Part shown: piece after piece, positions 12,625 through 63,429 of the stretch | Numbering within the stretch: the first letter of the stretch is position 1 | How the letters are laid out: each line of letters begins with the position of its first letter | DNA from: Candidatus Brennerbacteria bacterium | GTDB lineage: Bacteria; Patescibacteriota; Minisyncoccia; UBA6257; GWB1-50-10 | Assembly (NCBI GenBank): GCA_016183535.1 | Contig: JACPEK010000002.1 | Coordinates: 1,382-65,381 of the forward strand | Direction: 5' to 3' | DNA: 64,000 nt | Made by a program: the position numbers and the translations under genes | Notes under the pieces: model-generated | What the model was told of the DNA's origin: nothing | Databases searched by the model: none | What the model saw: the letters and a program-made list of their open reading frames with translations, nothing else

Positions 12625-12664
12625 CACAACATTCCAACATTCTATAGAATGTTGGAATGTTGTG
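12625..12664. repeat. Perfect 40-bp palindrome, repeat family copy A (CACAACATTCCAACATTCTA|TAGAATGTTGGAATGTTGTG)
   Basis: Read directly from the sequence. It starts 8 nt after the alaS stop codon. Related copies are at 16797, 61291, 61617 and 63393. Confidence 0.9.
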
Positions 12665-12777
12665 CTGGTGCCACTTTACGATTCTCGAGGATTGTTAAGT
12701 GGCAAGTATAGTAAGTTGAGAAAAATCATTTCCATGCTTGAGCGCGGTAAGATAGAGGAGGGTATATAATAAATCAC

Positions 12778-14769
12778 ATGGAAGACGCACCGGAGAAAAA
12801 CGTGGCCTATTTCGGCCGTGTGGACTTTCGAAATCAAAATAGGCTTTTTGGCATCAAGCGCATCGACCGGCGCCAGCATATGTATGTGATCGGGAAAACC
12901 GGCACCGGGAAAAGCGCGATGCTTCACAACCTTATCGTCCAGGATATCGCGAACGGTGAGGGGGTGTGTGTGGTGGATCCACACGGCGAGCTTGTGGAAT
13001 CGATCCTCACGAAGATTCCGAAGGAGCGGGTCGCCGACGTGGTGTATTTCAACCCTGCGGACAGCGAATATCCAATGGGATTCAACGTGCTCGAACTCCC
13101 CGACCCGAAATACAAACATCTTGTGGCGTCCGGTCTCATGGGGATTTTCACGAAGATTTGGGCGGGTACGTGGTCCGCGCGGATGGAGTACATTTTGAAC
13201 AACGCGGTCCTGGCGCTCCTTGATACGCCGAGCTCGACGCTTCTCGGCGTGAGCCGCATTCTCGTCGACAAGGAATACCGCCAACAAATTCTCGCGAACG
13301 TGAAGGATCCGGTGGTGCGGTCGTTCTGGCTCAACGAATACGAGGAGTGGCGTGACCAGTTCAGAAACGAGGCCATCGCCCCGATCCAAAACAAAGTGGG
13401 GCAATTTCTCTCGACCGCGATGATTCGGAACGTGGTGGGTCAGCCGCGGAGCACCATCGACATTTTCAAGATCATGAACGAGGGGAAAATTTTTCTCGTG
13501 AACGTGTCAAAGGGCCGCATCGGGGAGGACAACTCGGCGCTCTTGGGCGCCATGCTCATCACAAAAATCCAACTCGCCGCGATGGAGCGCGTGCGCATTT
13601 CCGAGGATGAGCGCGTGGATTTCTACCTCTACGTGGACGAGTTCCAGAATTTTGCGACCGATTCGTTCGCGGGCATCCTTTCCGAGGCGCGGAAATACCG
13701 CCTGAATCTTGTACTTGCGCACCAGTATATCGGTCAGCTGGTTACGGATATTTCCACAAAGGTGCGCGACGCGGTGTTCGGGAATGTGGGGACGATGATC
13801 GTGTTTCGCGTGGGAGCCGCCGATGCGGAATTTTTGGAGCAGGAATTCACGCCGGAACTCACGCAGGAAGATATTGTAAACCTTCCGAACTACACGATTT
13901 ATCTCAAGCTTATGGTGGACGGCATTACCTCGCGGCCGTTTTCCGCGCGCACCCTCCCGCCATTCAAAGTGGAAACTTCGGAAAGCGCCGCGGAGATGGT
14001 AATGATCGAATCGCGCCGGCGTTATGCGAAACCGCGGTATGCGGTGGAGGGAGAAATTACGCGGTGGGCGGGTGGCATGGTGGAAAATAATGGCGCGGCG
14101 GATGGATCCGACGAAAATCACTTTGGGGGCGCGGGGGGAGGTGAGGCGGGAAAATTCGAGGCGGTATGTTCCTCGTGCGGGAAAATCACCACCGTGCCGT
14201 TCAAGCCGCTCCCAGGGCGTCCCGTCTATTGCCAGGATTGTCTGAAAAAAATAAAAACCGGCGAGCTCCCGCCGGTGCGAGTGCCACGCCTGCCCGACCA
14301 GCAAGCGGGTGCGCTTTCGGAACGGGAAGAAACCGGCTCCATGAGCCATCTCGCAAAACTGGGAATAGAGTTCGGGGCTAATGTCCGTGGCGCCGAGAAT
14401 GCTCGTCATAAGCGTGAGGGGGAACATGCGCCGACACCGCGTCGGTTCACAGAAATAAGACCGCGTCCCGCGCCAGTCAACAAAAAGAATTTTGAAAAAC
14501 GCGAAACGCCTCCGCCTCTGCCGGTCGTAGCGGGCCTTAATGAAAAAAATCGCCAAGAGCACCAAGAAAGGCCGCGTCATCGCCCTTCCATCCTCCGCGA
14601 TGATCCTGCCATCCCCGTCTCTTCGGAGGAGGAGCAGGAACATAAACTTCGCTTGAGCGAGCTCCAACCGACGGAACTGAAGGAAACAAAAAAGCCGTCG
14701 TGGGACGACGGCGAGCCGGACATCAAGGGGTTGCAGGATGCGCTCCGCGACGCGCTCAAAAATATTTAA
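12778..14769 (+). CDS. TraG/VirD4/TrwB-like (T4SS coupling-protein-like) P-loop ATPase with a C-terminal CxxC-x17-CxxC zinc ribbon and a long disordered K/E/P-rich tail
   Basis: Walker A IGKTGTGKS, VVDPHGE, Walker B YLYVDEFQNF, AHQYIGQL. CSSCGK...YCQDC ribbon near aa 460. The last ~200 aa are low complexity. TATAAT lies 7 nt upstream of the ATG. Confidence 0.6.
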   Translation: MEDAPEKNVAYFGRVDFRNQNRLFGIKRIDRRQHMYVIGKTGTGKSAMLHNLIVQDIANGEGVCVVDPHGELVESILTKIPKERVADVVYFNPADSEYPMGFNVLELPDPKYKHLVASGLMGIFTKIWAGTWSARMEYILNNAVLALLDTPSSTLLGVSRILVDKEYRQQILANVKDPVVRSFWLNEYEEWRDQFRNEAIAPIQNKVGQFLSTAMIRNVVGQPRSTIDIFKIMNEGKIFLVNVSKGRIGEDNSALLGAMLITKIQLAAMERVRISEDERVDFYLYVDEFQNFATDSFAGILSEARKYRLNLVLAHQYIGQLVTDISTKVRDAVFGNVGTMIVFRVGAADAEFLEQEFTPELTQEDIVNLPNYTIYLKLMVDGITSRPFSARTLPPFKVETSESAAEMVMIESRRRYAKPRYAVEGEITRWAGGMVENNGAADGSDENHFGGAGGGEAGKFEAVCSSCGKITTVPFKPLPGRPVYCQDCLKKIKTGELPPVRVPRLPDQQAGALSEREETGSMSHLAKLGIEFGANVRGAENARHKREGEHAPTPRRFTEIRPRPAPVNKKNFEKRETPPPLPVVAGLNEKNRQEHQERPRHRPSILRDDPAIPVSSEEEQEHKLRLSELQPTELKETKKPSWDDGEPDIKGLQDALRDALKNI

Positions 14770-15341
14770 GCCTTTTCGACGCGCTCGGCATAAGCGCCGG
14801 TCGCGGTGTTGATGCGGACGATGTCGCCCTCGCCGATGAAGAGGGGAACATTCACCTTGCCGCCGGTTTCGAGCGTGACCGACTTCGTGCCGCCGGTCGC
14901 GGTGTCGCCTTTCACGGCGGGCGGCGCCTCGATAACCTTGAGATCTATTTTCACGGGGAGTTCGATCGAGATGATAGCGTCCTTGAATTTAAAGGCTTTC
15001 ACCTCCGTGTTTGTTTTCAAGAATTGGCCCGCATCTCCGATGAGTTCGTCGGTGAGGCTGAAACGTGCCGCAGGTTTTCCTTTCTCGTGAAACCAATACT
15101 CGCCCTTGGCGTGGTAGATAAAATTAACCAGCGCGGTCTCGATCTCCACCTCGTAAAAACTCTCGTTCTGGTGTGCGGCATAGTCGAGCACCTTCCCGGT
15201 GAGGAGGTTTTTGATCTTGAGCTGGGTTACCGGTTTCCGCTGTTGCATGCGGATGAACGCGTACTCCATCACCTTGTAGGGGTTTGGGTCCTCGTTCTTG
15301 GTGAAGATGGTGCCAACTTTCAATTCGTTATAGGAAAGCAT
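14766..15341 (-). CDS. efp: Elongation factor P
   Basis: 191 aa with KOW-like N-domain plus two OB domains; LLTGKV...GDIVRINTATGAYAERV. Confidence 0.88.
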   Translation of the reverse strand: MLSYNELKVGTIFTKNEDPNPYKVMEYAFIRMQQRKPVTQLKIKNLLTGKVLDYAAHQNESFYEVEIETALVNFIYHAKGEYWFHEKGKPAARFSLTDELIGDAGQFLKTNTEVKAFKFKDAIISIELPVKIDLKVIEAPPAVKGDTATGGTKSVTLETGGKVNVPLFIGEGDIVRINTATGAYAERVEKA

Positions 15342-15356
15342 TGCTCGTAGATTCTA

Positions 15357-16610
15357 TTGAAGGATGTGCGTTTTTGCAAGTATGATGGGGGTGCTATGGC
15401 GACTAAGCGAAAAGTATTCGTTGCAATGTCCGGGGGTGTTGATTCGTCGGTCGCGGCATTGTTGCTCAAACAGGCTACACCAAATAATTTCTCGAAATTA
15501 TTTAGTCGCCCGACCCCGAAGGGGTTTAGAGGCTACGACGTGACCGGCGTTTTCATGCGTTGCTACAACATCGACGGGTGCGCGGAGCGCGACGCCGAGG
15601 ATGCCCGCCGCGTCGCGGAGCATATCGGCATTCCTTTTTATGTTTTTGATTTTGAGGAGGAATACAAGAAGCGCGTGGTGGTGTACATGGTGGAAGGGTA
15701 TCGTGCGGGACTCACGCCGAACCCGGATGTGATGTGCAACCGCGAGATAAAGTTCGGCCTGTTTTTCAAAAAAGTGATGGCGCTCGGAGCGGATTACGTG
15801 GCGACGGGGCATTATGCGAGATTGAAGAATTACAAAATTGAAGGATTGAAAAATTCCATTTCTGGAGATAATAAAAAATCTTTCAATTATTCAATCTTTC
15901 AATCCAAGGATTTGAACAAGGACCAGTCGTATTTCCTGTGGACGCTCACACAAAATGAATTGTCGCGCACGTTTTTCCCGGTCGGCGATCTTCTGAAGCC
16001 CGAGGTGCGCGCGATCGCGAAGAAAGCGGAACTCCCGACCGCGGAGAAAAAGGATTCACAGGGCATTTGTTTCTTGGGTGATGTGTCGCTTATGGATTTT
16101 CTCTCGCAATATCTTCCGCGCGAGCGTGGCGCGGTCTTCAACATTGAGGGGAAAAAAATAGGGGAGCATGAAGGCGCGCACTTCTACACCATCGGCCAGC
16201 GGCATATCGGCGTTGCCTCGCTTAAGAAAGGAGGCGGCGCCAAGCCGCACTATGTAGTGGAGAAGGATATCGAGACGAACGCGGTTGTGGTGGCGGAAGG
16301 TTCCGATCACCCCGCGCTTTATAGGAATGAAATTGTGCTCACAGACGTGAATTTTGTAAATCCTCCCATGTCTTCTTTGATGCGTAGGAATAAGCGAATA
16401 GAGGTGATGGCACGGGTAAGATATCGCCAGCCGCTCGCGCCCGCGGTTTTTAAAATTGCCCCGACCTCGTCGCGGATTCGCAATGAAATTGGAAAAAACG
16501 GGAAATGGAAAATTGAATTTGACCAGCCGGTCAAATTCGTCGCTCCCGGCCAATCCGCGGTCTTTTATTCGAAGAGGGGAGAATTACTGGGCGGAGGAAT
16601 CATCGTTTGA
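15357..16610 (+). CDS. mnmA: tRNA-specific 2-thiouridylase MnmA (with an insertion)
   Basis: PP-loop SGGVDSS; catalytic Cys motifs (CNREIKFG, GICFLG). An alternative start exists at 15396 (MATKRK). Confidence 0.85.
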   Translation: MKDVRFCKYDGGAMATKRKVFVAMSGGVDSSVAALLLKQATPNNFSKLFSRPTPKGFRGYDVTGVFMRCYNIDGCAERDAEDARRVAEHIGIPFYVFDFEEEYKKRVVVYMVEGYRAGLTPNPDVMCNREIKFGLFFKKVMALGADYVATGHYARLKNYKIEGLKNSISGDNKKSFNYSIFQSKDLNKDQSYFLWTLTQNELSRTFFPVGDLLKPEVRAIAKKAELPTAEKKDSQGICFLGDVSLMDFLSQYLPRERGAVFNIEGKKIGEHEGAHFYTIGQRHIGVASLKKGGGAKPHYVVEKDIETNAVVVAEGSDHPALYRNEIVLTDVNFVNPPMSSLMRRNKRIEVMARVRYRQPLAPAVFKIAPTSSRIRNEIGKNGKWKIEFDQPVKFVAPGQSAVFYSKRGELLGGGIIV

Positions 16611-16650
16611 AACGACGTCGGGGAGAGACCAGTTGGCTATACTGGACCTA

Positions 16651-18138
16651 ATGCGAGCGTACGACGCGTTTTTCTTCGGGGCGCTTTTCTTTCTCCTCGG
16701 AGTGCTGGTTGCCAGTATGGGATGGCATGAAGCGGTGTGGTGGATCGTCGGAGGCGGGATTGCGCTCTCGATCGCGTTCCAGCTTTGCCACCGTAAAAAA
16801 CATTCTAACATTCTATCGAATGTTAGAATGTGGTGGTGGGGGGAGGGGTGGCTCGTCGTGGCCGTTCTTCTTTTTTTCATTCCCGCAGGCGCGTTTTACT
16901 ATAGAACGGATGATGCGCATTTTAGTCGCGCGCCGCTCCCGGAAGACGAACGGACGTTTCGTGTCGCGGTGGTGTCGCATCCGACGGTGAAAGAAGGGAC
17001 GCAGGAGGCCGTGTTCGCGCTTGAAGGGTACAATATCCGCGTTCTCGCAAAACTCCCGGCCTATCCTGCGTTCTCGTACGGCGATCGCGCGATGTTCGAG
17101 GGGCGTATCGAGAAACCGTTTTCCGATTCGTATCGCACCTACCTCGCGAAAGAACGGATACGCGGGGTGATGGCGTTTCCTAAAATTTTCGCGCACGAAT
17201 CCGGAAACTTATCGTTCCGCGCCGCACTCTATATGTTCCGTGATAAAATCGTTGATGCTTTCCGCCGGACGCTTCCCGCGAAAGAAGCCGCGCTCATGGC
17301 GGGCGTTACGGTCGGGGCGCGCGAGGATTTCTCGGAAGAATTCCGCGCCGCGATGGCGAAGAGCGGCACCACGCATATCACCGCGCTTTCGGGTTACAAC
17401 ATTTCGGTGGTCATTCAATACGTGATGTGGTTTTTGCTTTTCGTATTCCCGCGCCGCAGCGCGTTTATCGCTACGCTCGGGGTGGTGCTTGCGTTCGTGC
17501 TTATGACGGGCGCCGAGGCTTCGGTGGTGCGCGCGGCGGTAATGGGGGCGATCGCGCTTCTCGCGTCTCATGTGGGACGTCGCGCAAGCACGAGAAATAT
17601 AATCATACTCGCGGCGCTCGCGATGGTGCTCGTAAATCCGAAGGTGCTCGCATTTGACCTCGGATTCCAACTTTCATTCCTCGCGCTTCTCGGGATTGTA
17701 TATCTCAAGCCCGCGCTCGACCGGTTTTTTGGATGGGGAAGGGATCATGGGCGGGGTGTTTTCTCGTGGCGTGAAAACCTCACGACGACCGCGTCGGCGC
17801 AATTTGCGGTCGCGCCACTCCTCATCCATACCTTCGGGAGTGTGAGCGTTACCTCGCTCGCCGCGAACCTTCTGGTTCTTGAAGTGGTGCCGCTCACGAT
17901 GGGGCTTGGTTTTATCCTCGCGGGAGTTTCGCTTGTTTCGCTATTTCTTTCAAAACTCATTGCGCTTGTGGCGCTCCTCTTCCTCAAATTTCAGACGTTC
18001 GTAATCGAATTATTTGCAACCCTCGCCATACCGGTGGGGCCGACGTTTTCTCTCGGCACAGTCTTGCTTTACTACGGGGCGATCGTCGTATTTGTGTATT
18101 ATGTTCGCCGAAATCGCTTCATTCCTCGAAAAATCTAG
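16651..18138 (+). CDS. comEC: ComEC/Rec2 competence channel protein, N-terminal part (TM helices, DUF4131-like OB domain, competence domain)
   Basis: Multi-TM; SGTTHITALSGYNISVV competence motif. The start was moved to the first ATG after the mnmA stop. The MBL domain is in a separate overlapping ORF (next feature). Confidence 0.75.
   Translation: MRAYDAFFFGALFFLLGVLVASMGWHEAVWWIVGGGIALSIAFQLCHRKKHSNILSNVRMWWWGEGWLVVAVLLFFIPAGAFYYRTDDAHFSRAPLPEDERTFRVAVVSHPTVKEGTQEAVFALEGYNIRVLAKLPAYPAFSYGDRAMFEGRIEKPFSDSYRTYLAKERIRGVMAFPKIFAHESGNLSFRAALYMFRDKIVDAFRRTLPAKEAALMAGVTVGAREDFSEEFRAAMAKSGTTHITALSGYNISVVIQYVMWFLLFVFPRRSAFIATLGVVLAFVLMTGAEASVVRAAVMGAIALLASHVGRRASTRNIIILAALAMVLVNPKVLAFDLGFQLSFLALLGIVYLKPALDRFFGWGRDHGRGVFSWRENLTTTASAQFAVAPLLIHTFGSVSVTSLAANLLVLEVVPLTMGLGFILAGVSLVSLFLSKLIALVALLFLKFQTFVIELFATLAIPVGPTFSLGTVLLYYGAIVVFVYYVRRNRFIPRKI
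16797..16830. repeat. Palindrome repeat family copy B (ACATTCTAACATTC-TATC-GAATGTTAGAATGT), in frame inside comEC
   Basis: 14-bp stem with a 4-nt loop, one substitution relative to the copy A core. It encodes KKHSNILSNVRMW between TM2 and the OB domain. Confidence 0.85.
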
Positions 18139-18997
18139 ACGACGCACGTTCCTCGTGCTTGTGGCGCTCATTATCCTCGACGCCTTCCTTTTCGGTGTGC
18201 TTGGCGCGGAAGGCGGGGAAAATGGCGGTGCTTCGGTTTCATTCCTCGACGTGGGACAGGGCGACGCATCACTCATCGAGCTGGAGCGCGGCGTGCAGAT
18301 TCTGATTGATGGTGGGCCGCCGAACGGGCGGCTCCTCGCGGCGCTCGGGGAAATCATGCCACCGATTGATCGCACGATTGAACTCGTGGTGCTTACCCAT
18401 CCCGAACTTGACCACTATGGTGGGTTTATTGATCTCCTCACGCGCTACGACGTTGGCGCGTTTCTTGAAACCGGCGTAACGAAAGAAGTTGATGCCTACT
18501 CGACGTTGGCGCGAATTCTCGAGGAACGCGGCGTGCGCCGCATCACACTCCGCGCCGGCGACCGTGTTCGATATGCGGAAAATATTGTTACCGTGCTCTC
18601 GCCCGACGAAGCGCTCGCGCACGCGAAGGAGAAGAATGACACGGGGTTTGTGCTTGCATTCGAGTCGGATCCGTCCGCCGGCGGCGCGCGCTTTCTTTTC
18701 ACCGCGGACATCGGGGCGGAGGTGGAACGGGCGGTCGCAAAAATTATCGACGTTCCCTTCGATGTGCTCAAAGTTTCACACCACGGATCGAAATTTTCTT
18801 CCGATGCGCAATTCCTCGCCACGGTGCGGCCGGCGCTTGCCGCAATTGAGGTCGGGAAGAATTCCTACGGCCACCCAACCAAAGAGGCACTCGCGCGCCT
18901 TGAAGCGGTGGGGACAAAAATCTACCGCACGGACCGCGATGGGACAATCACGGTACGGGTAGAAAATGGCCGCCTACGCGTTTTTGATGAAAGGTAA
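18101..18997 (+). CDS. Metallo-beta-lactamase fold domain protein (ComEC C-terminal domain encoded as a separate ORF)
   Basis: LDVGQGDASLIEL...ILIDGG, HPELDHYGG, KVSHHGS motifs. It overlaps the end of the comEC N-terminal ORF by 38 nt in a different frame. Confidence 0.75.
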   Translation: MFAEIASFLEKSRRRTFLVLVALIILDAFLFGVLGAEGGENGGASVSFLDVGQGDASLIELERGVQILIDGGPPNGRLLAALGEIMPPIDRTIELVVLTHPELDHYGGFIDLLTRYDVGAFLETGVTKEVDAYSTLARILEERGVRRITLRAGDRVRYAENIVTVLSPDEALAHAKEKNDTGFVLAFESDPSAGGARFLFTADIGAEVERAVAKIIDVPFDVLKVSHHGSKFSSDAQFLATVRPALAAIEVGKNSYGHPTKEALARLEAVGTKIYRTDRDGTITVRVENGRLRVFDER

Positions 18998-19031
18998 CGG
19001 GCGGGGTACAATAGTGATAACGTAATCAACC

Positions 19032-20441: not shown

Positions 20442-21006
20442 AAAAGAACGCACGCTTGTGATCGTAAAACCGGACGGCGTCCAGCGCGGATTAATCGGTG
20501 AAGTCGTGGGGCGTTATGAACGCACCGGCTTAAAACTTGTGGGGCTCAAAATGATGACCGCGGATGAATCGCTCGCGGAGCGACATTATCTTCTGGACCC
20601 AGATTGGAAACGGAAGTCAGGACAGAAAACCATTGATTCCTACCAAAAGAAGGGGCTCACGCCTCCTTCTAAAAATCCTTTGGAAGTGGGAGAGATTACA
20701 CTCGCGAAATTAAGAAAATTTATGACGTCGGGACCCGTTGTTGCCATGGTGTGGCAAGGGATGCACGCGGTAGGGGTGGTCCGGAAGATCACCGGAGGGA
20801 CGGAACCTCTCACTTCGGACGTGGGGACCATCCGCGGAGACTTCACCATTGATTCCTATGAGGTTTCGGATGAGGATAACCGCGCCACGCGGAACATCGT
20901 GCATGCCTCGGGGTCTGCGGAAGAGGCGGAAGCCGAGATTGTGCTGTGGTTCAGACCTGAAGAGATCTTGAATTACCGGCTCGTAGGCGACGCTATTCTC
21001 TATTAG
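20431..21006 (+). CDS. ndk: Nucleoside diphosphate kinase (with an insertion)
   Basis: ERTLVIVKPDGVQRGLIGEV, active-site NIVHASGS. Confidence 0.85.
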   Translation: MANKKERTLVIVKPDGVQRGLIGEVVGRYERTGLKLVGLKMMTADESLAERHYLLDPDWKRKSGQKTIDSYQKKGLTPPSKNPLEVGEITLAKLRKFMTSGPVVAMVWQGMHAVGVVRKITGGTEPLTSDVGTIRGDFTIDSYEVSDEDNRATRNIVHASGSAEEAEAEIVLWFRPEEILNYRLVGDAILY

Positions 21007-21063
21007 AGGCGAGGTCAAATACTTATCCACTTTCACGGGTTGTGGTGGGGGTATAATAGGGAT

Positions 21064-50398: not shown

Positions 50399-50515
50399 GA
50401 AAAATTCATGCCCTCCCACGGCGCGATCATCGAAGAAAGCCCGTAGCCCTCATTCGCCAATTCGCGCGAATAAGCGAATAGTTCCCGCCGTCCAGTTTTG
50501 AGGTAGAATGTGGTC

Positions 50516-51100
50516 ATGCTGAAAGCCGTCATCTTTGATCTTAATGGAGTTTTCGTAAAAAGCCGTAAGTTGAGCGAACGCTTTCATGAGCGATTCGGCG
50601 TTGCACCCGAAGAATTCTTTTCCGCACTGAACGTCATTATGGCAAAAGTGCGCATGCCGAATGCCGGCGACTCCTTTGCATACTGGGAGCCGTATTTTGA
50701 GAAGTGGGGCGTGGGACTCACGAAGGAGGCATTCCTCGATTTTTGGTTTTCGGGCGAGGAGGAAGTGCCCGAGATGGTATCGCTCGCCCGCGAGCTAAAA
50801 GCAAAAGGAGTAAAGCTATTCATTCTTTCCAACAATTTTTCCGAGCGCACCGTGTTTTATCAGGAGCATTTTCCGTTCCTTCGGGAACTTTTTGATAAGG
50901 TGTATTACTCTTGGCAAACGGGCTTTCGGAAGGATAGCGAGAAGGCGTATCAGAATCTTCTCACGGAGAACAGCCTCGCGCCGGGGGACTGCGCGTTTTT
51001 TGATGATTCACCGGAGAATATTGAAATAGCCCGCCGCCTCGGCATCCAGGCGTACCCATTTGAAAACCCCGAGCGCACCCGCAGTATTTTAGTGAAATAA
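50516..51100 (+). CDS. HAD-superfamily hydrolase
   Basis: Motif I FDLNGV(F), motif II SNN, motif IV FFDDS. Start set at the ATG 7 nt after a TAGAAT box; the ORF track's GTG at 50510 overlaps the -10 box. Confidence 0.75.
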   Translation: MLKAVIFDLNGVFVKSRKLSERFHERFGVAPEEFFSALNVIMAKVRMPNAGDSFAYWEPYFEKWGVGLTKEAFLDFWFSGEEEVPEMVSLARELKAKGVKLFILSNNFSERTVFYQEHFPFLRELFDKVYYSWQTGFRKDSEKAYQNLLTENSLAPGDCAFFDDSPENIEIARRLGIQAYPFENPERTRSILVK

Positions 51101-53001: not shown

Positions 53002-53478
53002 ATGAATATTCGAAAGGGGATTGCGCTTGTGGTGGCGGTGGGGGCGTCGCTTCTCGCGGGCGCTATCGGTTCCATATTCACCGCATCCTCAGTCTCCTTG
53101 TGGTACCCGACACTCATGAAACCGGCGCTCAACCCTCCCTCGTGGGTTTTTGGCCCCGTGTGGACCGTGCTCTACGTGCTTATGGGTATTGCGGCGTTCC
53201 TCGTGTGGAGGCAAGGGTGGGAGCGGCGCGACGTAAAAGACGCGCTCAAGATATTTGCGCTCCAGCTCGTGCTGAATGCGCTTTGGTCCGTACTCTTCTT
53301 CGGGCTCCAAAGCCCGCTTCTCGCGCTCGTGGGCATCGTGCTCTTGTGGGGCGCAATACTCTGGGTTATATCTGCGTTCGCACGCATTTCACGCCCTGCG
53401 GCGTGGCTTTTGGTGCTCTACCTCGCGTGGGTTACCTTCGCGACATATCTCAATGCCGCCATCTGGCTCTTGAACTAG
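53002..53478 (+). CDS. tspO: TspO/MBR family tryptophan-rich sensory protein
   Basis: 158 aa, 5 TM helices, W-rich (PSWVFGPVWTVLY, LNALWSVLFF). GGGTAGAAT box 8 nt upstream of the ATG. Confidence 0.85.
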   Translation: MNIRKGIALVVAVGASLLAGAIGSIFTASSVSLWYPTLMKPALNPPSWVFGPVWTVLYVLMGIAAFLVWRQGWERRDVKDALKIFALQLVLNALWSVLFFGLQSPLLALVGIVLLWGAILWVISAFARISRPAAWLLVLYLAWVTFATYLNAAIWLLN

Positions 53479-54108: not shown

Positions 54109-54244
54109 GCCTCTCGGTCACTTCGCACCCTCGCCTTGCTTGCTTCGGAGCAACGGGGGAGTGTAGCACCGTTAATCCCTCATTCGCCAATTCGCGCGAA
54201 TTGGTGAATGATTCCCGCTGTGCGTTTTAGGGTAGAATGGAGAT

Positions 54245-54316
54245 ATGAACACGAACCTTGCGACGACAAAGGCGTACGATAAGATGGCACCGCACTACAG
54301 TAAGATTCATTTTGAT
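54245..54316 (+). pseudogene. Truncated N-terminal fragment of a UbiE/MenG-like methyltransferase (copy 2)
   Basis: MNTNLATTKAYDKMAPHYSKIHF then a stop. The upstream 70 nt duplicate the cassette found before the HAD gene (ATTCGCGCGAAT palindrome plus GGGTAGAATG). Confidence 0.5.
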
Positions 54317-54546: not shown

Positions 54547-54586
54547 TGCGCGCGAAGCGCAAAAAGGTCAGTTAATCTCAAAAATT

Positions 54587-55180: not shown

Positions 55181-55190
55181 AAAATTCGCG

Positions 55191-58100: not shown

Positions 58101-59615
58101 GGACGCTCATATTCATATATCTTCCAAGCATTTGATCGCGACGGCATGGGATCCGCGACAAGCTCCGTTACGGTGGAAGCGCCGAGTTTTTTGAGCGCGC
58201 TCTATCTCTATCCCGATCCGTTTGCTACGAGCAGTCGTTATGTGATTGACCTCTACTATGATTCATATCCATTCATCCCGCATCGCTGGAGTTCGGGCGG
58301 CGCGTGGCGCCTGCCGCTGTTCTACTTGAACCGCGTTGCGCCGGGGAGTACGAGCACACACGTCTATGATCCTGAACCGATTTCCGCGGCGCTTGCCAAC
58401 GGCATCGTCGCGATGAAATTTCGCGACTGCGGTGGTCAACCGGACGAGGTGAATGTACGGGTGCGCCTGCCCGACACCGCCGCGCAGTGTGTATCCTCCG
58501 GCGCGGGCGTGGACGACATAGCCTTCTCACTATTGGAGGATCCCCACCTGCGGCTCACGCTCGCCTCGTCAAGCGACGCGCTTCCGCTTTCAACATCTGA
58601 TTATCTCACCGTCGCCTTCTATGATTATTCGACGCCCACCTTGGTATACGGTGGCGGCCGCGCGTTCTCGCTCGTCGCGACCGACACGAATCAATACCAT
58701 TTCAGTGTTTCCGCCCCCGCCTTCATCGCTCCGCACATTCCCGATTCGTTCACCGTAGAATTTGACGCCACAAGCTCGCGCCTCATCGCGCGATGGGCGA
58801 CCTCGACCGACGTAGACACTTTGGATAACCTTCTCACCTACGAAGTTGCATTTTCGACGAGTACCTCTCCCGCGGAGTCTGACTGGCAGTCTGCAGGGTC
58901 CCAGCCGCACGCGGATGTGGATGACCAGACGTTTATCTCCCATCGCTACCTGCGGCACGTGGCGCCGGGCGACGCATTCACCATAGGCGTGCGCGCGAAG
59001 GACGAATTTGGCGTAACCTCGACGCCGCGCACCGCGGCGTGGCAATATCAGGCCGCCACGGAGGTGTTTTTACAGGCAACGAGCACCGGGTGGAGTAACG
59101 TGTGGGGTCAAAAGGATTCGGGGCACCCGCAATATCCTGCTCGGGCATCCCTCCAAAGCATTGTTCCTGCGAGCGCGCTTATATTCGATGTTGCGACGAT
59201 ACGGGCGTGGGAAGAGGTAATAGGAAGAAGCGTGCTGACCACGCTCCGGCTCGGTGTGTTCGTGGATGACGGCGCGAACCGACCGCTCCTCACAAACAAA
59301 CTTGGCGAGGCCACGGTCGATCAACTTGGAAATTTCGCAACCTCCACCGATCTCGCGTTTGTGTTTACCTCTCCTATAACGCTTGCCACAAGTACAAAAT
59401 ATTGGTTTGCACTCGACGTGGGGAGCGTGAGCGACAACGCGGCATATTTTGAAAATCAGTGGCGGAACGCGATCGCGACCGGCGACCCCTATTCCGCGGG
59501 GCAGGCAGGGAGAGGCGCGGTGGAGGAATGCGCCAACAACGACTATTGCGGCACGAGTATTCCCTCGCCCTCGGCCGACGCGGATTGGTATCTGAAACTG
59601 TATTTGCGGCAGTAG
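55191..59615 (+). CDS. Giant secreted surface protein: zinc-dependent phospholipase C / P1-nuclease-like N-domain, two lamin-tail domains (LTD), and a ~900-aa beta-rich C-terminal region
   Basis: Signal peptide ARALA|YDQ. PLC/S1-P1 fold motifs NHFYDP and GHALHLLQDMTVPDH. LTD1 LAITEIMYNASGTDDGREWIEVRN, LTD2 VVISEVQVAGADAGDEFIELYNPTDQAVDMSGWSL. 1474 aa. Confidence 0.7.
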   Translation: MRRATVSLIVLAVTIGIVFPARALAYDQETTHAALTDEAVDFYNLLYPDEPLTAEQKEWIVEGSINEDEFPRWLNHFYDPIRKIGWNGEHQGIASAGATRAVAYATLVPIGGAVLPTTAWVHDHAMQAGPYANMGGDRTWEQALKYYVDGNKEEAYRTLGHALHLLQDMTVPDHSRNDSHAPLAGDDGSPLEDYLEKWNRGNIGELDLVGNLTAQNTRPPSFNKIEDYFTNTAEYSNKHFFSKDTIISDVYTFPEIVKDNGNFGYGIDENGNEFPLAGVDFITDESKKVSKIFLIGNKKEYYPILNAYFSRLAPKAVLYGAGVIELFEKQARDALEFKDIAPHATRLDLSRVTSLFSFSLGALGKNIVTGVASLPSLIGRVFSTAVGGVKNAASDVAAFTQNIISKIQNNPKRAAEIATESAEQIENLLAGDPTDGVVIDTEEERAQLKELQNQLDDIADQVDDFTYQVDKAAGNEGRGGAQETAGGADETEDAQKKTGSVDKSVDTKEKTNNTGSKKNISSGGGGGVAASAPNLAITEIMYNASGTDDGREWIEVRNDGASSASFDDVRFLEGGTNHRLVFARGAAALAAGAYAIITDDADRFIIDYPSFAGSLFDSSFSLSNDGETLALTFNGSTFHSVSYSSSTGAHGDGNSLQLIGAAWQAATPTPGVVNVAGSSGGGSSGEGSLSATSTATSSPPTSGFGASHVVISEVQVAGADAGDEFIELYNPTDQAVDMSGWSLQYAGGNTVVTSSTVSKKNFLATSSIVAKSFYLVGRGLDEAGGDGYRGSVVSDMAHRTFSLSGASAGAKLFLVPSSTLIESETDPIILDTLDYTSTTVVDAGQSFERRAWSNNLCHSAIAGGTGEFLGNGCDTGTFAEDFEIRAAANPQNSGSFKEPRTAPSVLQAPTGTTALAVYNRNAIAINFAWQASSDFEGATSTVTYRVTNASTSAIIFNTTSTSFSKQITEVGRSYSYIFQAFDRDGMGSATSSVTVEAPSFLSALYLYPDPFATSSRYVIDLYYDSYPFIPHRWSSGGAWRLPLFYLNRVAPGSTSTHVYDPEPISAALANGIVAMKFRDCGGQPDEVNVRVRLPDTAAQCVSSGAGVDDIAFSLLEDPHLRLTLASSSDALPLSTSDYLTVAFYDYSTPTLVYGGGRAFSLVATDTNQYHFSVSAPAFIAPHIPDSFTVEFDATSSRLIARWATSTDVDTLDNLLTYEVAFSTSTSPAESDWQSAGSQPHADVDDQTFISHRYLRHVAPGDAFTIGVRAKDEFGVTSTPRTAAWQYQAATEVFLQATSTGWSNVWGQKDSGHPQYPARASLQSIVPASALIFDVATIRAWEEVIGRSVLTTLRLGVFVDDGANRPLLTNKLGEATVDQLGNFATSTDLAFVFTSPITLATSTKYWFALDVGSVSDNAAYFENQWRNAIATGDPYSAGQAGRGAVEECANNDYCGTSIPSPSADADWYLKLYLRQ

Positions 59616-59616
59616 A

Positions 59617-61020
59617 ATGCGCTATGATTTGCCCATGACGCAAGAACAAGCGCTTTTGGTTTTAAAAAGCGGTGCCAATGTCTTTCTCACCGGCGAGCCG
59701 GGATCGGGAAAAACACACACCGTGACCCGCTACGTGGCCTATCTGCGGGAGTACGGTATCGAGCCCGCGATCACCGCCTCGACCGGCATCGCGGCGACGC
59801 ATGTAGGAGGCATGACCATTCACGCGTGGAGCGGCATCGGCGTGCGGAAATCGCTCTCGCGCGACGAGGCGGAATCTCTGGCGGACAACGATCGACTCGC
59901 CGCGCGGGTCGCGCGCGCCACGGTACTCATTATTGACGAAATCTCGATGCTCGACGCCGCGACGCTCTCTGCGGTGGACCTTGCGTGCCGCGCGCTCCGC
60001 CGACGCGAGTCGCCGTTCGGCGGTTTGCAGATCGTGCTCGTGGGGGATTTTTTCCAACTGCCGCCCGTCGCGCGCGAGGACGAGCCGCCGGCGCAATTTG
60101 CGTTCCATTCCTCCTCGTGGGAGGATGCAAACCTCTCCGTATGCTACCTCTCGGAGCAATACCGGCAAGACGACCCGGCCTTCCTTTCGTTCCTTGCAAC
60201 CCTGCGGCGTGGCGCGGCAAACCATGAAACGTCCGCGGCGCTCCGCGCGGGCGTAAAGGAGGGCGTCCGCGACGCGCACGACACACACCTTTACGCGCAC
60301 AACGTTGATGTCGATCGTATGAACGAGAATCATTTAACGGCGCTCCCCGGGGAATCCCATGCGTTTGTGATGGAATCGCACGGCGCAAAGGCGCTCGTCG
60401 AGCAATTGAAACGCGGGTGTCTTTCGCCCGAACGGCTCTCGCTTAAAACCAGTGCGCGCGTGCTCTTCACAAAAAATAATTTTGAAAATGGATTTGTGAA
60501 CGGCACGCTCGGCGAGGTGGAAGATTTTGCCGAGGATGGCTATCCGTTGGTGCGTACGCGCACGGGGCGCCTCATCCACGCGCTTCCCATGGAATGGTCC
60601 ATCATGGACGGTGCACGTGCGCTCGCCCGCATCCGGCAGGTGCCCTTGAAGCTCGCATGGGCGATTACCATGCATAAAAGTCAGGGGATGACGCTCGATG
60701 TCGCCACGGTGGACCTCTCTCGCGCGTTCGAGTACGGGCAGGGATACGTAGCGCTCTCCCGCGTGCGCTCTTTTGCGGGTCTCTCCCTCCTCGGCTGGAA
60801 TGAACGCGCGCTCGAAGTGCATCCCGACATTCTCGCGCGCGACGAAGATTTTCGGGCGCACGCGGCGCGTACCGCGGCCGCGCTTGCAGGGCGCGCACCC
60901 GCCGCACAAAATGGGCTCGAAAAAAAATTCATTACCGCGTGCGGCGGGAAAATGAAGAAATCAAACGCGGCGCGGAGGGGTAGGTGGCGTACGCGGAGAA
61001 AATTTTCTACCCGCGGCTAA
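59617..61020 (+). CDS. Pif1/RecD2-family ATP-dependent DNA helicase with a basic C-terminal tail
   Basis: Walker A GEPGSGKT, Walker B LIIDEISM, VLVGDFFQLPPV, MHKSQGMT..VALSRV motifs. It starts 2 nt after the giant protein's stop. Confidence 0.8.
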   Translation: MRYDLPMTQEQALLVLKSGANVFLTGEPGSGKTHTVTRYVAYLREYGIEPAITASTGIAATHVGGMTIHAWSGIGVRKSLSRDEAESLADNDRLAARVARATVLIIDEISMLDAATLSAVDLACRALRRRESPFGGLQIVLVGDFFQLPPVAREDEPPAQFAFHSSSWEDANLSVCYLSEQYRQDDPAFLSFLATLRRGAANHETSAALRAGVKEGVRDAHDTHLYAHNVDVDRMNENHLTALPGESHAFVMESHGAKALVEQLKRGCLSPERLSLKTSARVLFTKNNFENGFVNGTLGEVEDFAEDGYPLVRTRTGRLIHALPMEWSIMDGARALARIRQVPLKLAWAITMHKSQGMTLDVATVDLSRAFEYGQGYVALSRVRSFAGLSLLGWNERALEVHPDILARDEDFRAHAARTAAALAGRAPAAQNGLEKKFITACGGKMKKSNAARRGRWRTRRKFSTRG

Positions 61021-61053
61021 TCCCTACCTACGGCAAGGCACGTTTTTGTTTTT

Positions 61054-61290
61054 TTGGAGTACAATGAACGTATGAGATTCTTCGTGCGCGTGAAGCCGAA
61101 CGCGAAGGAGGAGAAAGTGACGGGCGAGGGGACGAATTTTACGGTAGCGGTGAAAGCGCCGCCGCGCGAGGGCAAGGCAAACACGGCGGTCATCGCGGCG
61201 CTCGCCGCGCATTTCAACGTGCCAAAATCGCAGGTCAACATTGTTGCCGGCCACGTTGCACGCCACAAAGTCATTGAAATTTCTCCCTAG
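61054..61290 (+). CDS. DUF167 (YggU-like) small protein
   Basis: RFFVRVKPNAKEEKV...VAVKAPPREGKANTAVIAALAAHFNVPKSQVNIVAGHVARHKVIEI. Confidence 0.75.
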   Translation: MEYNERMRFFVRVKPNAKEEKVTGEGTNFTVAVKAPPREGKANTAVIAALAAHFNVPKSQVNIVAGHVARHKVIEISP

Positions 61291-61330
61291 CACAACATTC
61301 CAACATTCTGCAGAATGTTGGAATGTTGTG
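61291..61330. repeat. Perfect 40-bp palindrome, family copy C (CACAACATTCCAACATTCTG|CAGAATGTTGGAATGTTGTG)
   Basis: It starts immediately after the DUF167 stop and overlaps the -35 position of the TATAAT (61347-61352) promoter of the ArsR-like gene. Confidence 0.9.
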
Positions 61331-61358
61331 GAAAAAGTCGGTGCGGTATAATGAAACT

Positions 61359-61625
61359 ATGAAAACGCCACAGCAACTGGAGCGATATTTCAAGGGGGCG
61401 GCGAACCATTGGCGTATCTCAATTTTGACCGCCGTCGGGAAACACAACGGCATTACGCTCGATGGAGTCGCGCGAGCGCTCGGCGGCAATTTCAAGACCG
61501 TTTCACAACATACCCGTCAGCTGGTGCGCGCGGGGCTTCTTAATAAGCGATATCAAGGACGCTGGGTCACTCATTCGCTTTCGCCCTACGGCCGCCGATT
61601 TCTCACCTTTATGAGAACATTCTAA
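61359..61625 (+). CDS. ArsR/SmtB-family winged-helix transcriptional regulator
   Basis: 88 aa; HTH GITLDGVARALGGNFKTVSQHTRQLVRAGLL. Start set at MKTPQQ, 6 nt after the TATAAT box (leaderless). The ORF track's 61323 start lies inside the palindrome. Confidence 0.65.
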   Translation: MKTPQQLERYFKGAANHWRISILTAVGKHNGITLDGVARALGGNFKTVSQHTRQLVRAGLLNKRYQGRWVTHSLSPYGRRFLTFMRTF

Positions 61626-61652
61626 TATTCTGCAGAATGTTAGAATGTTGTA
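61617..61652. repeat. Palindrome family copy D (ACATTCTAATATTCTG|CAGAATGTTAGAATGT, one mismatch)
   Basis: It overlaps the ArsR-like stop codon. Confidence 0.85.
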
Positions 61653-61692
61653 AGAAGGAAAAGAAAGCTTAACGATACGACGGTGCGGGGCG

Positions 61693-62439
61693 GTGTGTAT
61701 ACTTTCCATGCTTCGCAAAGGAAAGAAAAAGAGCGAGCGCGACGTCGTGCTCGTGGCGGTTCTCAAAGATCCGCGCGATCTCCGCATCCTGCGGCGAAAG
61801 CGCTGGTATCGGATCCCGCTCGCGTTTCTGCCGAAGCGGAAGTTCCACTACCTCGCGTTTTATCAACCCGCGATCTTCGGAAAGAACGGAACGCGCATCG
61901 CATACTACGGGCGGGTGGCACGGCAGAGAGTCGCGGAACGCGTGAAACTCCTGCCGTGCGAAGTGAGCCACCCGCGGGCGCATCATTTATACGCACAGAT
62001 ATTTTTGAAGCGGATCGAAACGCTCCCGCGTCCGATACGGAATGTCGCGCCGCGCCGAGTCTCCTTTGGCTTCACCACGCTCGCGAAGCTCCGCACGGCC
62101 AAAAATCTCCTTGCGCTCTATGGGGTGCCGCCGACCGAAGACATTATGGCGCGCGCACTTCGGCGCGAAAATCTCCGCGCGCTCCGTGAATTCCCCGTTT
62201 CACTCGCGGGGAAACGTTTTCGGTTGGACTTCGCGGTGCTCGCGGGTGGGCGGCGGATCGCGATCGAGTGTGACAACGAAAAGGCGCATGCAAATAAAAT
62301 CCAACGACGCCGGGATCGGGCCAAAAACATTGTCCTCCGCCGCGCGGGTTGGCGCGTGATTCGTCTCGGGGAGCACGATATTACGGAGCACCTCGACGTG
62401 TGTATGGAAAGAATCCGCATCAACATAGAAAAGATATGA
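61693..62439 (+). CDS. DUF559 (Vsr-like endonuclease fold) domain protein with an unknown N-terminal domain
   Basis: C-terminal RLDFAVLAGGRRIAIECDNEKAHANKIQRRRDRAKNIVLRRAGWRVIRLGEHDI matches the DUF559 pattern. Confidence 0.6.
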   Translation: MCILSMLRKGKKKSERDVVLVAVLKDPRDLRILRRKRWYRIPLAFLPKRKFHYLAFYQPAIFGKNGTRIAYYGRVARQRVAERVKLLPCEVSHPRAHHLYAQIFLKRIETLPRPIRNVAPRRVSFGFTTLAKLRTAKNLLALYGVPPTEDIMARALRRENLRALREFPVSLAGKRFRLDFAVLAGGRRIAIECDNEKAHANKIQRRRDRAKNIVLRRAGWRVIRLGEHDITEHLDVCMERIRINIEKI

Positions 62440-62654
62440 AATATGGAACGGACAACCCGCATCCGCCCCTGCGGAGCGAGATCAAGGTGGGCGACGCGGT
62501 GTGGGTCATAGAAAAAGCCAACTACGGCACGACGAACTACACGCAGGGCATCGTGGCGGCTATCCTCTCGCCCGGCGGTGTCCATCCGAGGGGCATCAAA
62601 GTGCGCCTCACCGACGGTATCATCGGCAGGGTGCAGTGGAAGATAGAGGGTTAG
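62436..62654 (+). CDS. YwbE-like (DUF2196) small protein
   Basis: GDAVWVIEKANYGTTNYTQGIVAAILSPGGVHPRGIKVRLTDGIIGRV. Its start overlaps the upstream stop (ATGA). Confidence 0.7.
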   Translation: MKYGTDNPHPPLRSEIKVGDAVWVIEKANYGTTNYTQGIVAAILSPGGVHPRGIKVRLTDGIIGRVQWKIEG

Positions 62655-62674
62655 TTGTTTATAATAAAAGGAAG

Positions 62675-63394
62675 ATGAAGGCAATAGGGATAGATGTAGG
62701 CGGTTCGAAGATACGCGCGGTGCGGGTTCGGCTGGCTCACCGCGAGCGGTGGAACGGCACGAGGGTAGAGAAGCTCGTCGTCGCGAAAACTCCGCGGAGC
62801 GCCGCGGCGCTCACCAAGATTCTCCGGCGGATAATCGTGTCGCTTGAAGAACATGAAGCGTTTTCTGTGGGAATAGGATTTGCAGGCGTCGTTCAGGACC
62901 GGAAGATCGTTATGAGCCCCAATAACCGATTTTTAAAACACTATGATCCTTCGCGCGCGCTTGGTCGTGCGGTGACAATAGACAACGACGCGCGTGTGTT
63001 TGCCAGAGCTGAATATGCCATGGGTGCGGCGAAGGGAGCTCAACGCGCGCTCTTTCTTACATTCGGCACGGGTGTGGGTCGCGCGTACGGTATTGGAAGT
63101 GAGGTAAAGCGCGTGAAGCGATTCGAGTACCCGGAGCAATGGGAGAAACATTATCAACACGTGAAGGGTGTTGCGGCGCTCGCGCCGTTCCTTGCGGAAA
63201 AACTTCAGCCGCTCATCCGTGCATACCAGCCGGCAGTTATCGTCGCGGGCGGCGCAGTTGCCGAGAAAAAAGGATTTATTGCCGCGTTCCGTGCGGAATT
63301 AAAGAAGCGGGGGTTTAAAGACGTTGTTGCGGGCGCCAAGCTTGGCACGCTTGCGGGCGCGATCGGCGCGGCGATGACTGCACGTGCAAAATAA
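62675..63394 (+). CDS. ROK-family sugar kinase (glucokinase-like)
   Basis: N-terminal IGIDVGGSKIRAV ATP-binding motif; sugar-kinase fold. AAAAGGAAG RBS. Confidence 0.7.
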   Translation: MKAIGIDVGGSKIRAVRVRLAHRERWNGTRVEKLVVAKTPRSAAALTKILRRIIVSLEEHEAFSVGIGFAGVVQDRKIVMSPNNRFLKHYDPSRALGRAVTIDNDARVFARAEYAMGAAKGAQRALFLTFGTGVGRAYGIGSEVKRVKRFEYPEQWEKHYQHVKGVAALAPFLAEKLQPLIRAYQPAVIVAGGAVAEKKGFIAAFRAELKKRGFKDVVAGAKLGTLAGAIGAAMTARAK

Positions 63395-63429
63395 CATTCC
63401 AACATTCTGCAGAATGTTGGAATGTTGTG
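63393..63429. repeat. Palindrome family copy E (AACATTCCAACATTCTG|CAGAATGTTGGAATGTTGTG)
   Basis: It overlaps the ROK stop codon and ends 1 nt before the GH1 start codon. Confidence 0.9.

Follow-up and report, generated by a model that had tools for sequence, protein, structure and literature searches.

The subject of this report is a family of short palindromes, together with the small gene that two of them flank, in a 64-kb stretch of DNA from a Candidatus Brennerbacteria bacterium (contig JACPEK010000002.1). This stretch, all 64,000 nucleotides of which were analysed, is referred to as the window. The window carries five copies of an AT-rich palindrome. Two of these bracket a gene encoding an 88-residue winged helix-turn-helix (wHTH) protein of the ArsR/SmtB fold, and the same arrangement, called the module below, recurs in distant bacterial lineages. 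We favour, with moderate confidence, a two-part system in which the palindrome is the cognate site of the 88-residue protein and an autoregulated module coexists with dispersed orphan sites. The module, composed of a palindrome, a promoter, the wHTH gene and a second palindrome, is a self-contained unit present across many phyla; the protein would bind the palindrome, perhaps as two dimers on four 8-bp repeats (AACATTCY).

The palindromes of the window and the flanked wHTH gene

All five copies match the 32-mer pattern ACATTCYAAYATTC-NNNN-GAATRTTRGAATGT, found with 0 mismatches at positions 12629, 16800, 61295, 61617 and 63394 of the window, whereas dinucleotide-preserving shuffles of the window give a chance expectation of 0.00 matches. 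The five-copy family proposed in an earlier note, which had been made from the sequence alone, is therefore real, and the 32-mer pattern covers all its members. Each arm consists of two direct 8-bp repeats, AACATTCC AACATTCT, and the centre of the element reads T-NN-A. The GC content of the element is approximately 31%, versus 54% for the window. RNA folding of each window copy gives -22 to -31 kcal/mol, with z values of -5.8 to -7.0. The copies and the genes associated with them are as follows.

Copy A, 12625-12664, no strand: perfect 40-bp palindrome, orphan; 7 nt past the AlaRS stop codon (TGA) and 113 nt ahead of the start of the gene for a type IV coupling protein (T4CP)-like ATPase.
Copy B, 16800-16831, + strand: orphan, in frame within comEC; two 14-bp arms (16800-16813; 16818-16831) around a non-palindromic centre of 4 nt, TATC.
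Copy C, 61291-61330, no strand: perfect 40-bp palindrome directly 5' of the wHTH gene; upstream site of the module and putative autoregulatory operator.
Copy D, 61616-61649, no strand: 34-bp palindrome with one T.G mismatch, overlapping the wHTH stop codon; downstream site of the module; the DUF559 open reading frame (ORF) follows 44 nt further on.
Copy E, 63393-63426, no strand: perfect 34-bp palindrome, orphan, at a distance of 1.8 kb from the module; the ROK kinase stop codon (63392-63394) is on one side of it and the GH1 start (63431 or 63449) on the other.
TATAAT -10 box, 61347-61352, + strand: 6 nt ahead of the wHTH ATG (61359); leaderless-type promoter, read from the sequence.
wHTH gene, 61359-61625, + strand: 88-residue winged-helix protein of the ArsR/SmtB fold, putative palindrome-binding protein; its last codons, ACA TTC TAA, are supplied by copy D.
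comEC, 16651-18138, + strand: carries copy B in a loop after the second transmembrane helix.
DUF559/MTES_1575 PD-(D/E)xK-type nuclease-domain protein, 61693-62439, + strand: Pfam MTES_1575, 7e-13; recurrent module neighbour, candidate role only.
PIF1/RecD2-type SF1B helicase, 59617-61020, + strand: Pfam PIF1, 3e-32; commonest module neighbour, candidate role only.

Copies A and C are perfect palindromes at exactly the positions given in the earlier note. Copy E is also perfect, but it measures 34 bp and ends at 63426 instead of 63429; the first ATG available to the GH1 gene lies 4 nt past the palindrome, and not 1 nt past it, as had been claimed. The single mismatch of copy D and the 14-bp-stem version inside the ComEC frame (copy B) were both found, at coordinates 1-3 nt away from those previously assigned. 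In ComEC, copy B is read as K49-KHSNILSNVRM-W61 (nt 16795-16833). The contacts with stop codons also held: in addition to copy A, which follows the AlaRS gene, the TAG of the DUF167/YggU gene abuts copy C, the wHTH TAA (61623-61625) falls inside copy D, and the TAA of the ROK gene (62392-63394 region) overlaps copy E. The bracketing of the ArsR-like gene, with copy C upstream of a leaderless TATAAT promoter and copy D over the stop codon, is as first described. Copies C and D thus form the module, copy E is a local orphan, and copies A and B are distant orphans.

The link between palindrome and gene was assessed in an unbiased manner on 69 distinct metagenome modules, which were selected through the protein and not through the palindrome. 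Of the 67 testable modules, 62 have an upstream copy, the end of its core lying 14-78 nt (median 29) before the start codon. Of 68 modules, 65 carry a downstream copy at the stop codon. Its core begins, in 55 of these, precisely 9 nt ahead of the stop codon's end, which means that ACA TTC TAA (Thr-Phe-stop) belongs to the palindrome. Homologues looked up individually all have one palindrome 5' of the start and another at the stop, as the wHTH gene of the window has copies C and D.

The upstream copy is placed as an autoregulatory operator would be. In 58 of 84 modules, the interval that separates the palindrome from the start codon contains a hexamer matching TATAAT at five or more of six positions; this hexamer mostly ends 6-10 nt ahead of the start, as in leaderless-type promoters, and most often begins 14-15 nt past the core. 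At that distance, the TTGGAA of the right arm falls at the 17-18-nt spacing of a -35 box. Such -10-like hexamers are five-fold enriched (0.058 versus 0.012 per position) on the gene-facing side of the upstream copy, and the enrichment is confined to that side. The conserved spacing of the boxes, along with the flanking of the gene, thus fits an autoregulatory operator; since copy C lies across the -35/spacer region of the wHTH promoter, autorepression would be the most likely outcome.

The AlphaFold model of the 88-residue protein (predicted local distance difference test score 88.8) shows the a1-a2-a3-a4-b1-b2-a5 topology in full, and its a5 is free to take part in dimerisation. Foldseek comparisons of this model with CadC, ArsR, SmtB, HlyU and CzrA give TM values of 0.86-0.90, and a profile built from the family matches HlyU and CadC (4e-7 to 3e-6) and ArsR (up to 2e-5) in PDB. 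Curated ArsR models score below their cut-offs (39.5 bits versus 55 for NCBIfam HTH_metalloreg, 21.4 versus 27 for Pfam HTH_20). Taken together, the sub-threshold scores and the profile matches to HlyU and CadC indicate a distant member of the ArsR/SmtB family. Ligands for metal sensing were not detected, as no Cys is conserved in an alignment of 38 homologues and a5 (SPYGKSFLKFMKTF) contains no His, Asp or Glu. Homologues form 373 clusters, with 50-76% identity between phyla and a mean column identity of 78%. The closest solved relative by sequence is HlyU, which binds as a dimer to a 17-bp imperfect palindrome within a 35-bp footprint (PMC4330345).

Two side observations concern small ArsR genes and promoters. 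At one locus (L120, 11160-11640; fetched loci are designated by L and a number), a different 88-residue ArsR paralogue (PF01022) has a palindrome of its own, CATTGAACAATTC-N4-GAATTGT, on either side: one copy is on its promoter and the other just past its stop codon, ahead of the TAGAAT box of the next gene. Flanking by their own sites may be a general habit of small ArsR genes in these genomes. Leaderless-type promoters, which seem usual in this lineage, place TATAAT 6-7 nt before the starts of both the wHTH gene and the T4CP-like ATPase gene in the window (61347-61358 and 12760-12777), and the T4CP gene has the same arrangement in two relatives (L125, 4470-4490; L126, 6350-6366).

Spread, dispersal and symmetry of the palindrome

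Genomes were scanned for the 32-mer with one genome per species and in 8-kb blocks; all the figures are lower bounds. The exact pattern occurs in at least 118 blocks, from approximately 100 genomes and at least 6 phylum-level groups, usually as a perfect dyad of 34-40 bp around the core. Among the matches listed, Patescibacteria are represented by Paceibacteria-type groups, Saccharibacteria-labelled metagenome-assembled genomes (MAGs), and Doudna-, Uhr-, Harrison-, Giovannoni-, Lipton- and Zambryskibacteria, and other bacteria by Verrucomicrobiota, Kiritimatiellia, Lentisphaerae, Phycisphaerae and Bdellovibrionales-labelled MAGs; the wHTH gene adjoins the palindrome in 21 of these 118 blocks, which were ascertained through the palindrome. 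Most loci from the Planctomycetes-Verrucomicrobia-Chlamydiae (PVC) group have a GC content of 52-60%, two Phycisphaerae loci having 42-43%. Given that the element has approximately 31% GC, the AT-rich palindrome is conspicuous there too. Searches of viral contigs and of phage and plasmid records turned up neither the palindrome nor close relatives of the wHTH protein, and no vector was identified. PADLOC defence-system models returned only generic matches to wHTH, helicase and nuclease domains. The idea that the palindromes break assemblies was discarded, as contig ends are not enriched in copies (2/100 versus a 3.6% background).

Orphan copies are densest near the wHTH gene. Their density per 100 kb is 11 at 0.15-1 kb from the gene, 11.5 at 1-2 kb, 4.8 at 2-4 kb, 2.7 at 4-7 kb and 0.9 at 7-10 kb; this last value meets the background of approximately 0.85 copies per 100 kb in blocks devoid of the wHTH gene. 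Such a background corresponds to approximately 10-20 copies per 1-Mb genome, a figure extrapolated, as are all our copy-number estimates, from pieces of 8-20 kb.

Variant sub-families, whose members have derived changes in common, have been amplified in individual genomes. For instance, L146 carries three copies of ACATACCAACAAACT..AGTTTGTTGGTATGT (at 5045, 6888 and 12018), all the changes of which are compensated between arms; L070 has two identical copies with three mismatches, L008 and L133 contain TCAC/GTGA variants, and L171 contains ATAA-flanked copies with a TATA centre. Where the arms are otherwise fixed, the dinucleotide at the centre can still be GC, CA/TG, TA or AT. Diverged copies such as ACATACCAACAAACT-NN-AGTTTGTTGGTATGT coexist with canonical wHTH-flanking ones in L146, and diverged copies with compensated changes are also seen in L132 (8078 and 9502). 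In L124 (11786-11854), the two arms of one copy are split by a 39-nt insert, which makes this either an interrupted palindrome or a longer variant.

Nearly all copies (94%) lie outside genes, and 18 of 322 distinct copies are located well inside ORFs of at least 200 residues, a 120-nt margin from the gene end being part of the definition. The hosts of the in-gene copies include TsaD, MnmA, class-II aldolase (FBA), PurL, MurC, UvrC, GluRS, a 6PGD-like enzyme, an FAD oxidase, PrmC and ComEC. TsaD copies occur in two genomes at two different positions. An MnmA copy is in-gene in L115 and, at a different position, near the 3' end in L080, where it falls outside the 120-nt criterion; the MnmA gene of the window has none. 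A single Pfam domain (F_bP_aldolase) spans the insert in the aldolase, and the TsaD and FAD-binding domains are split by it. The reading phase HSNILxNVGM is used in 16 of the 18 in-gene copies, and the phase NIPTFCRMLEC in none. All three phases of the C-variant are open, yet 16 of 18 copies use one of them, which points to selection on the encoded peptide.

The insertion of copy B into comEC can be evaluated from orthologues. The 12 closest ComEC orthologues (61-69% identity) lack the peptide and feature WYAQGRGWKFNRW where the window has HRKKHSNILSNVRMWWW, and a loop that differs in this way argues for insertion. The suggestion, made in the earlier note as an alternative, that the palindrome is a REP/MITE-like element able to insert in frame (REP, repetitive extragenic palindromic; MITE, miniature inverted-repeat transposable element) is supported as far as behaviour is concerned, both by these orthologues and by the 17 further in-gene copies, which are in unrelated housekeeping genes. 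A side observation concerns MnmA: the loop RIRNEIGKNGKW of the window protein can be aligned to KKHSNILKNVGMLW, which the palindrome encodes in the MnmA of L080, and there is a faint DNA resemblance (ATTCGCAAT...GGAAATGG), either a decayed copy or a coincidence. As a decayed copy, the C-terminal loop of the window MnmA (16470-16510) was unconvincing on inspection.

The two arms of the palindrome vary in concert. In 150 distinct copies, double-sided changes occur in 16 of the 20 stem pairs; doubly changed cells number 250, versus 142 +/- 9.6 in shuffles, none of 500 shuffles being as high, and the covariation score is 0.179, versus 0.06-0.12 in slid controls. Whole variants are symmetric throughout, such as ATATTCTCACATTCT..AGAATGTGAGAATAT, which has six changes. 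In the downstream copy of the module, the T forced on the left arm by the stop codon is nearly always met by an A in the right arm (32 copies fully compensated versus 4 uncompensated). Upstream copies are compensated too, though they lie 5' of their own -10 box and hence are presumably untranscribed, barring read-through from upstream genes. A bias of G.U over A.C mismatches, taken as a sign of selection at the RNA level, was not significant either overall (35 versus 24) or in upstream copies (17 versus 24). Compensation in upstream copies, together with the absence of a G.U preference, suggests that pairing matters or acts at the DNA level. Template-switch correction of quasi-palindromes during replication would yield arm compensation without selection; selection for cruciform extrusion and a hairpin copying intermediate are alternatives.

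These data suggest how the orphan sites may have arisen in the two-part system. Orphans A, B and E would have spread as discrete units of 34-40 bp, in the fashion of REPs, MITEs and Rickettsia palindromic elements (RPEs), via an insertion process, and orphans would survive where they are least harmful, i.e., past stop codons, between convergent genes and within genes in the one stop-free, cysteine-free frame (HSNILxNVGM). The identity of the arms may be kept by hairpin formation and template-switch correction at replication, or by selection for cruciforms. The PIF1-type helicase and the DUF559 nuclease encoded beside the module, the only candidates seen, could be the copying enzymes.

Several points weigh against this interpretation. 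The binding of the palindrome by the protein is something that we infer from position alone. The net length change in ComEC is only 4-6 residues, and ComEC and MnmA together span a net gain of 2-6 residues, so that both have the look of a loop replacement and not of a clean 12-residue insert. In two aldolase orthologues carrying the copy, 2 of 10 codons have changed within it, versus 112 of 207 at surrounding synonymous sites; this conservation could reflect function, homogenisation or independent insertion, and is a hint that the copy is functional and not junk. Genomes carry few copies, tens at the most, unlike the hundreds of classical REPs, and a local regulon would equally be expected to show a density that falls off away from the wHTH gene. 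A search for empty and filled sites among 327 copies in all fetched loci showed that contigs of 95-100% identity never differ, and hence gave no sign of ongoing mobility; without such polymorphism, spread can be deduced over evolutionary distance only. Target-site duplications are not visible, and in-gene copies are not accompanied by any direct repeat. No transposase, integrase or tyrosine/serine recombinase family recurs among 1716 ORFs in 190 loci. A parent insertion sequence was sought, and no pair of single arms bracketing a transposase or any other gene was found; isolated arms are rare and are decayed palindromes.

Neighbouring genes and alternative explanations

Four rivals of the two-part system were considered, none of which accounts for all the observations, and with them one more novel reading, that of a selfish pair. 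For the fetched loci, genes were called by our own greedy ORF procedure.

The module could be a transposase-free selfish pair, in which the wHTH gene and its two sites are an autonomous unit spreading across phyla and the site is copied to new loci, reading frames among them, via a hairpin intermediate, by enzymes that the pair does not encode. We consider this unlikely. The PIF1-type helicase and the DUF559 PD-(D/E)xK nuclease would be candidate copiers, with a Helitron-like division of labour. In the 190 loci, the recurrent neighbours of the copies are PIF1 (13 loci), DUF559/MTES_1575 (11) and TspO (10; 53002-53478 in the window). PIF1, DUF559 or both are found beside the module in distant lineages (L119, L120, L132, L133, L171, L205 and L102; 59617-62439 in the window). 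If the selfish pair were true, this would be the first population of REPIN-like repeats (REPINs being pairs of inverted REPs) built around a sequence-specific DNA-binding protein and not a transposase.

According to a purely regulatory explanation, every palindrome is an operator, and the regulon in the window comprises the wHTH, DUF559, GH1 and T4CP ATPase genes. This is improbable in our view, for all that the autoregulatory geometry of the upstream copy is conserved and copies cluster around the regulator gene. In addition, the palindrome is located 44-64 nt upstream of the PIF1 start in 5 of 13 loci (L102, L132, L133, L171 and L205) and 32-84 nt upstream of DUF559, or overlapping its start, in 4 of 11. 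Copy E provides a promoter-like match, TTGGAA-17-AATAAT, which starts in its right arm ahead of GH1, and the other ArsR paralogue of L120 is flanked by its own palindrome. The genes adjoining the copies are, on the other hand, heterogeneous. The 279 ORFs next to copies fall into 211 clusters, the only large one being that of the wHTH protein itself; the 58 genes with a copy at most 100 nt upstream represent 72 Pfam families, and 67 downstream neighbours of modules represent 78.

The location of the copies also argues against operators. The 119 intergenic copies are distributed over tandem (84), convergent (22, 18%) and divergent (13) spacers, a distribution that resembles that of spacers in general; relative to spacer length, there is a slight excess of convergent and a deficit of divergent locations (p = 0.03). 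In tandem spacers, 57 copies are nearer to the upstream stop and 27 to the downstream start, and 33 of 84 are within 5 nt of the stop. Solo copies are followed by a -10 box at operator spacing at a rate of 0.006, versus 0.009 for the background and 0.058 for the autoregulatory copy, and the 18 copies within coding sequence are at odds with operators as well. Compensated arms would not be expected of a plain dimer operator. The earlier note had interpreted the palindrome as an operator for the ArsR-family protein with a small regulon made up of these four genes: the link between palindrome and gene and the autoregulatory geometry stand, while the regulon does not. The proximity of PIF1 and DUF559 to palindromes possibly reflects a small conserved link rather than a regulon.

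Copies A and B are, moreover, missing in relatives with the same gene order. Copy A lies approximately 100 nt upstream of the T4CP gene's own TATAAT. Two relatives, L125 and L126, keep the order DnaG-RpoD-AlaRS-T4CP-EFP-MnmA-ComEC. At the site of copy A, L126 has a 16-nt AlaRS-T4CP spacer without a palindrome (L126, 6351-6366), and L125 has a Sua5 gene between AlaRS and T4CP, again without a palindrome; these loci, the closest relatives found, contain no copies in 21 kb of syntenic DNA. The AlaRS-T4CP spacer of the window is 160 nt long (12665-12777 past copy A), i.e., it has approximately 100 nt in addition to the 40-bp palindrome. In L125, an ORF for a reverse transcriptase (RVT_1) follows T4CP. 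The T4CP-like ATPase itself (12778-14769; TrwB/TraD-type P-loop) features a treble-clef zinc finger of the form CxxC-x17-CxxC and, beyond it, a long tail of low complexity. The T4CP gene keeps its syntenic place next to AlaRS in those relatives that were examined, which suggests a core gene and not part of a conjugative element.

A second repeat, unrelated to the palindrome, was noticed at 50447-50510 and 54177-54245 of the window. It consists of the palindrome TCATTCGCCAATTCGCGCGAATTGGTGAATGA, imperfect in the first copy, and approximately 30 shared bases, with a TAGAAT box approximately 7 nt before a start codon (a HAD-type hydrolase at 50517 and an ORF at ~54226). This looks like a shared operator-promoter for another regulator.

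The palindrome could instead act as a 3'-end RNA element, a hairpin of 16-20 bp serving as a bidirectional terminator or exonuclease block, the protein being secondary. We regard this as quite improbable. The hairpins of the window copies are strong, copies are close to stop codons and somewhat over-represented between convergent genes, in about a quarter of them the stem is prolonged by an A-rich 5' flank and a T-rich 3' flank (AAAAACATTC...GAATGTTTTT), and changes in the arms are compensated. Unlike terminators, the sequence is conserved across phyla; the stem has approximately 31% GC, the window copies lack a T-tract, and copies C, D and E were not called terminator-like in a scan of 60900-63600. 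The upstream copies, presumably untranscribed, are as well compensated as the others and show no G.U bias, and a terminator within 18 essential genes would be harmful. Rfam 15 returned no match, only sub-threshold microRNA-hairpin look-alikes (19-30 bits versus gathering scores of 65-98).

Very unlikely is the possibility that the protein organises the chromosome as ParB-parS, Noc or MatP do, acting on the nucleoid or as a roadblock, with the palindromes as dispersed loading or barrier sites useful to the host. It would fit a highly conserved protein that has no conserved target gene, the occurrence of some tens of sites per genome, some of them in genes, and the conservation of an in-gene copy beyond synonymous expectation. 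The distribution is, however, patchy, as the two closest relatives have no sites in their syntenic DNA, and copies cluster at the gene for the protein and not in a chromosomal domain. Moreover, in known systems point mutation within 13-16 bp gives rise to the sites, which are not foreign 34-40-bp inserts of ~31% GC in genomes of 55-60% GC.

The least probable explanation is that the palindromes are recombination sites (cores of 13-6-13 or 15-2-15) for a recombinase encoded elsewhere that bound single-gene cassettes in a pdif/attC-like manner, the wHTH protein being an accessory or directionality factor: single genes are indeed bracketed by two copies (wHTH, DUF559 in L120 and a 238-residue gene in L086), the central dinucleotide varies between fixed arms and the module is found in varied contexts, but no recombinase, integrase or transposase family recurs in the surveyed loci, most copies are solitary, in-frame gene copies are left unexplained, and near-identical strains have neither gained nor lost cassettes.

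Significance and comparison with known systems

Bacteria of the candidate phyla radiation (CPR) have tiny genomes and few regulators, and one of their most conserved small DNA-binding proteins would have the palindrome as its sole conserved target. Copies of this palindrome are found even within genes for tRNA modification, glycolysis, the cell wall and DNA uptake. We searched the literature for the DNA strings, the encoded peptides, and CPR in combination with palindromes, MITEs and ArsR; nothing relevant describing the element was retrieved, and we could not find a description of a palindrome family paired with a dedicated binding-protein gene. If the protein binds the sites, a repressor-operator pair, and not a transposase-end pair, would define a dispersed repeat family. 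This raises the questions of how the sites are copied, of whether the protein protects, silences or exploits them, and of whether they rewire expression through the outward TTGGAA present in each arm. On a practical level, the conserved 32-mer offers an easy means of following horizontal transfer among CPR and PVC bacteria, and the HSNILxNVGM peptide, when it turns up in housekeeping proteins, can be recognised as an artefact of annotation.

Among known systems, the architecture closest to that of the module is the REPtron, in which a single-copy gene for a REP-associated tyrosine transposase (RAYT) is flanked by REPs that the enzyme is thought to mobilise (PMC3733652). The palindromes resemble REPs and REPINs in being short (20-40 bp) hairpins, mostly extragenic and 3'-proximal and occasionally in genes, in flanking a single-copy gene, and in having two inverted arms that act as one unit. 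They differ in several respects. RAYTs are Y1 transposases (HUH-Tyr, IS200-like), whereas the gene flanked here encodes an 88-residue protein of the ArsR fold without HUH or Tyr motifs. The GTAG or CGTC tag is missing, copies number tens instead of hundreds, and the sequence is common to at least 6 phylum-level groups, in contrast with species-specific REPs. In addition, the upstream copy doubles as the promoter/operator of the gene.

As for behaviour within genes, the closest analogues are RPEs and some MITEs. In-gene MITEs have been described, for example, in Coxiella (PMC5896051), and MITEs have been reviewed (PMC10969869). Like these, the present palindromes occur in frame and free of stop codons in tolerated loops of conserved genes, and also in intergenic DNA. 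Known elements of this type, however, are 100-500 bp long, lineage-restricted and devoid of a dedicated binding-protein gene, whereas the palindrome is 34-40 bp long, crosses phyla and consists essentially of two abutted arms that are read in one frame in 16 of 18 in-gene copies. Because RPEs differ in both length (100-150 bp versus 34-40 bp) and host range, the relationship is one of resemblance and not of membership. With respect to MITE features, the element has two inverted arms only; no direct repeat, no pair of arms bracketing a transposase and no high-identity empty/filled pair were seen.

The ArsR/SmtB regulators HlyU, CadC and SmtB share the fold of the 88-residue protein; members of this family bind AT-rich dyads as dimers, and the site overlaps the promoter of the regulator's own gene. 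The 2-bp centre of the element recalls the 12-2-12 layout of SmtB/CzrA operators. The protein differs from these regulators in the absence of metal-ligand residues and in scoring below curated cut-offs, and its putative site differs in being a perfect palindrome with compensated variation, in having orphan copies not associated with promoters, and in having a second copy fused to the stop codon. CIRCE, the controlling inverted repeat of chaperone expression, is an inverted repeat conserved across phyla and recognised by a conserved winged-helix repressor, HrcA. In contrast with the palindrome, CIRCE is found only before chaperone operons, which form a conserved regulon; genes do not carry insertions of it, and hrcA does not lie between two copies. 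What distinguishes the present family among small dispersed palindromes is that its dedicated gene encodes a sequence-specific protein of the repressor type, the putative ligand of its sites.

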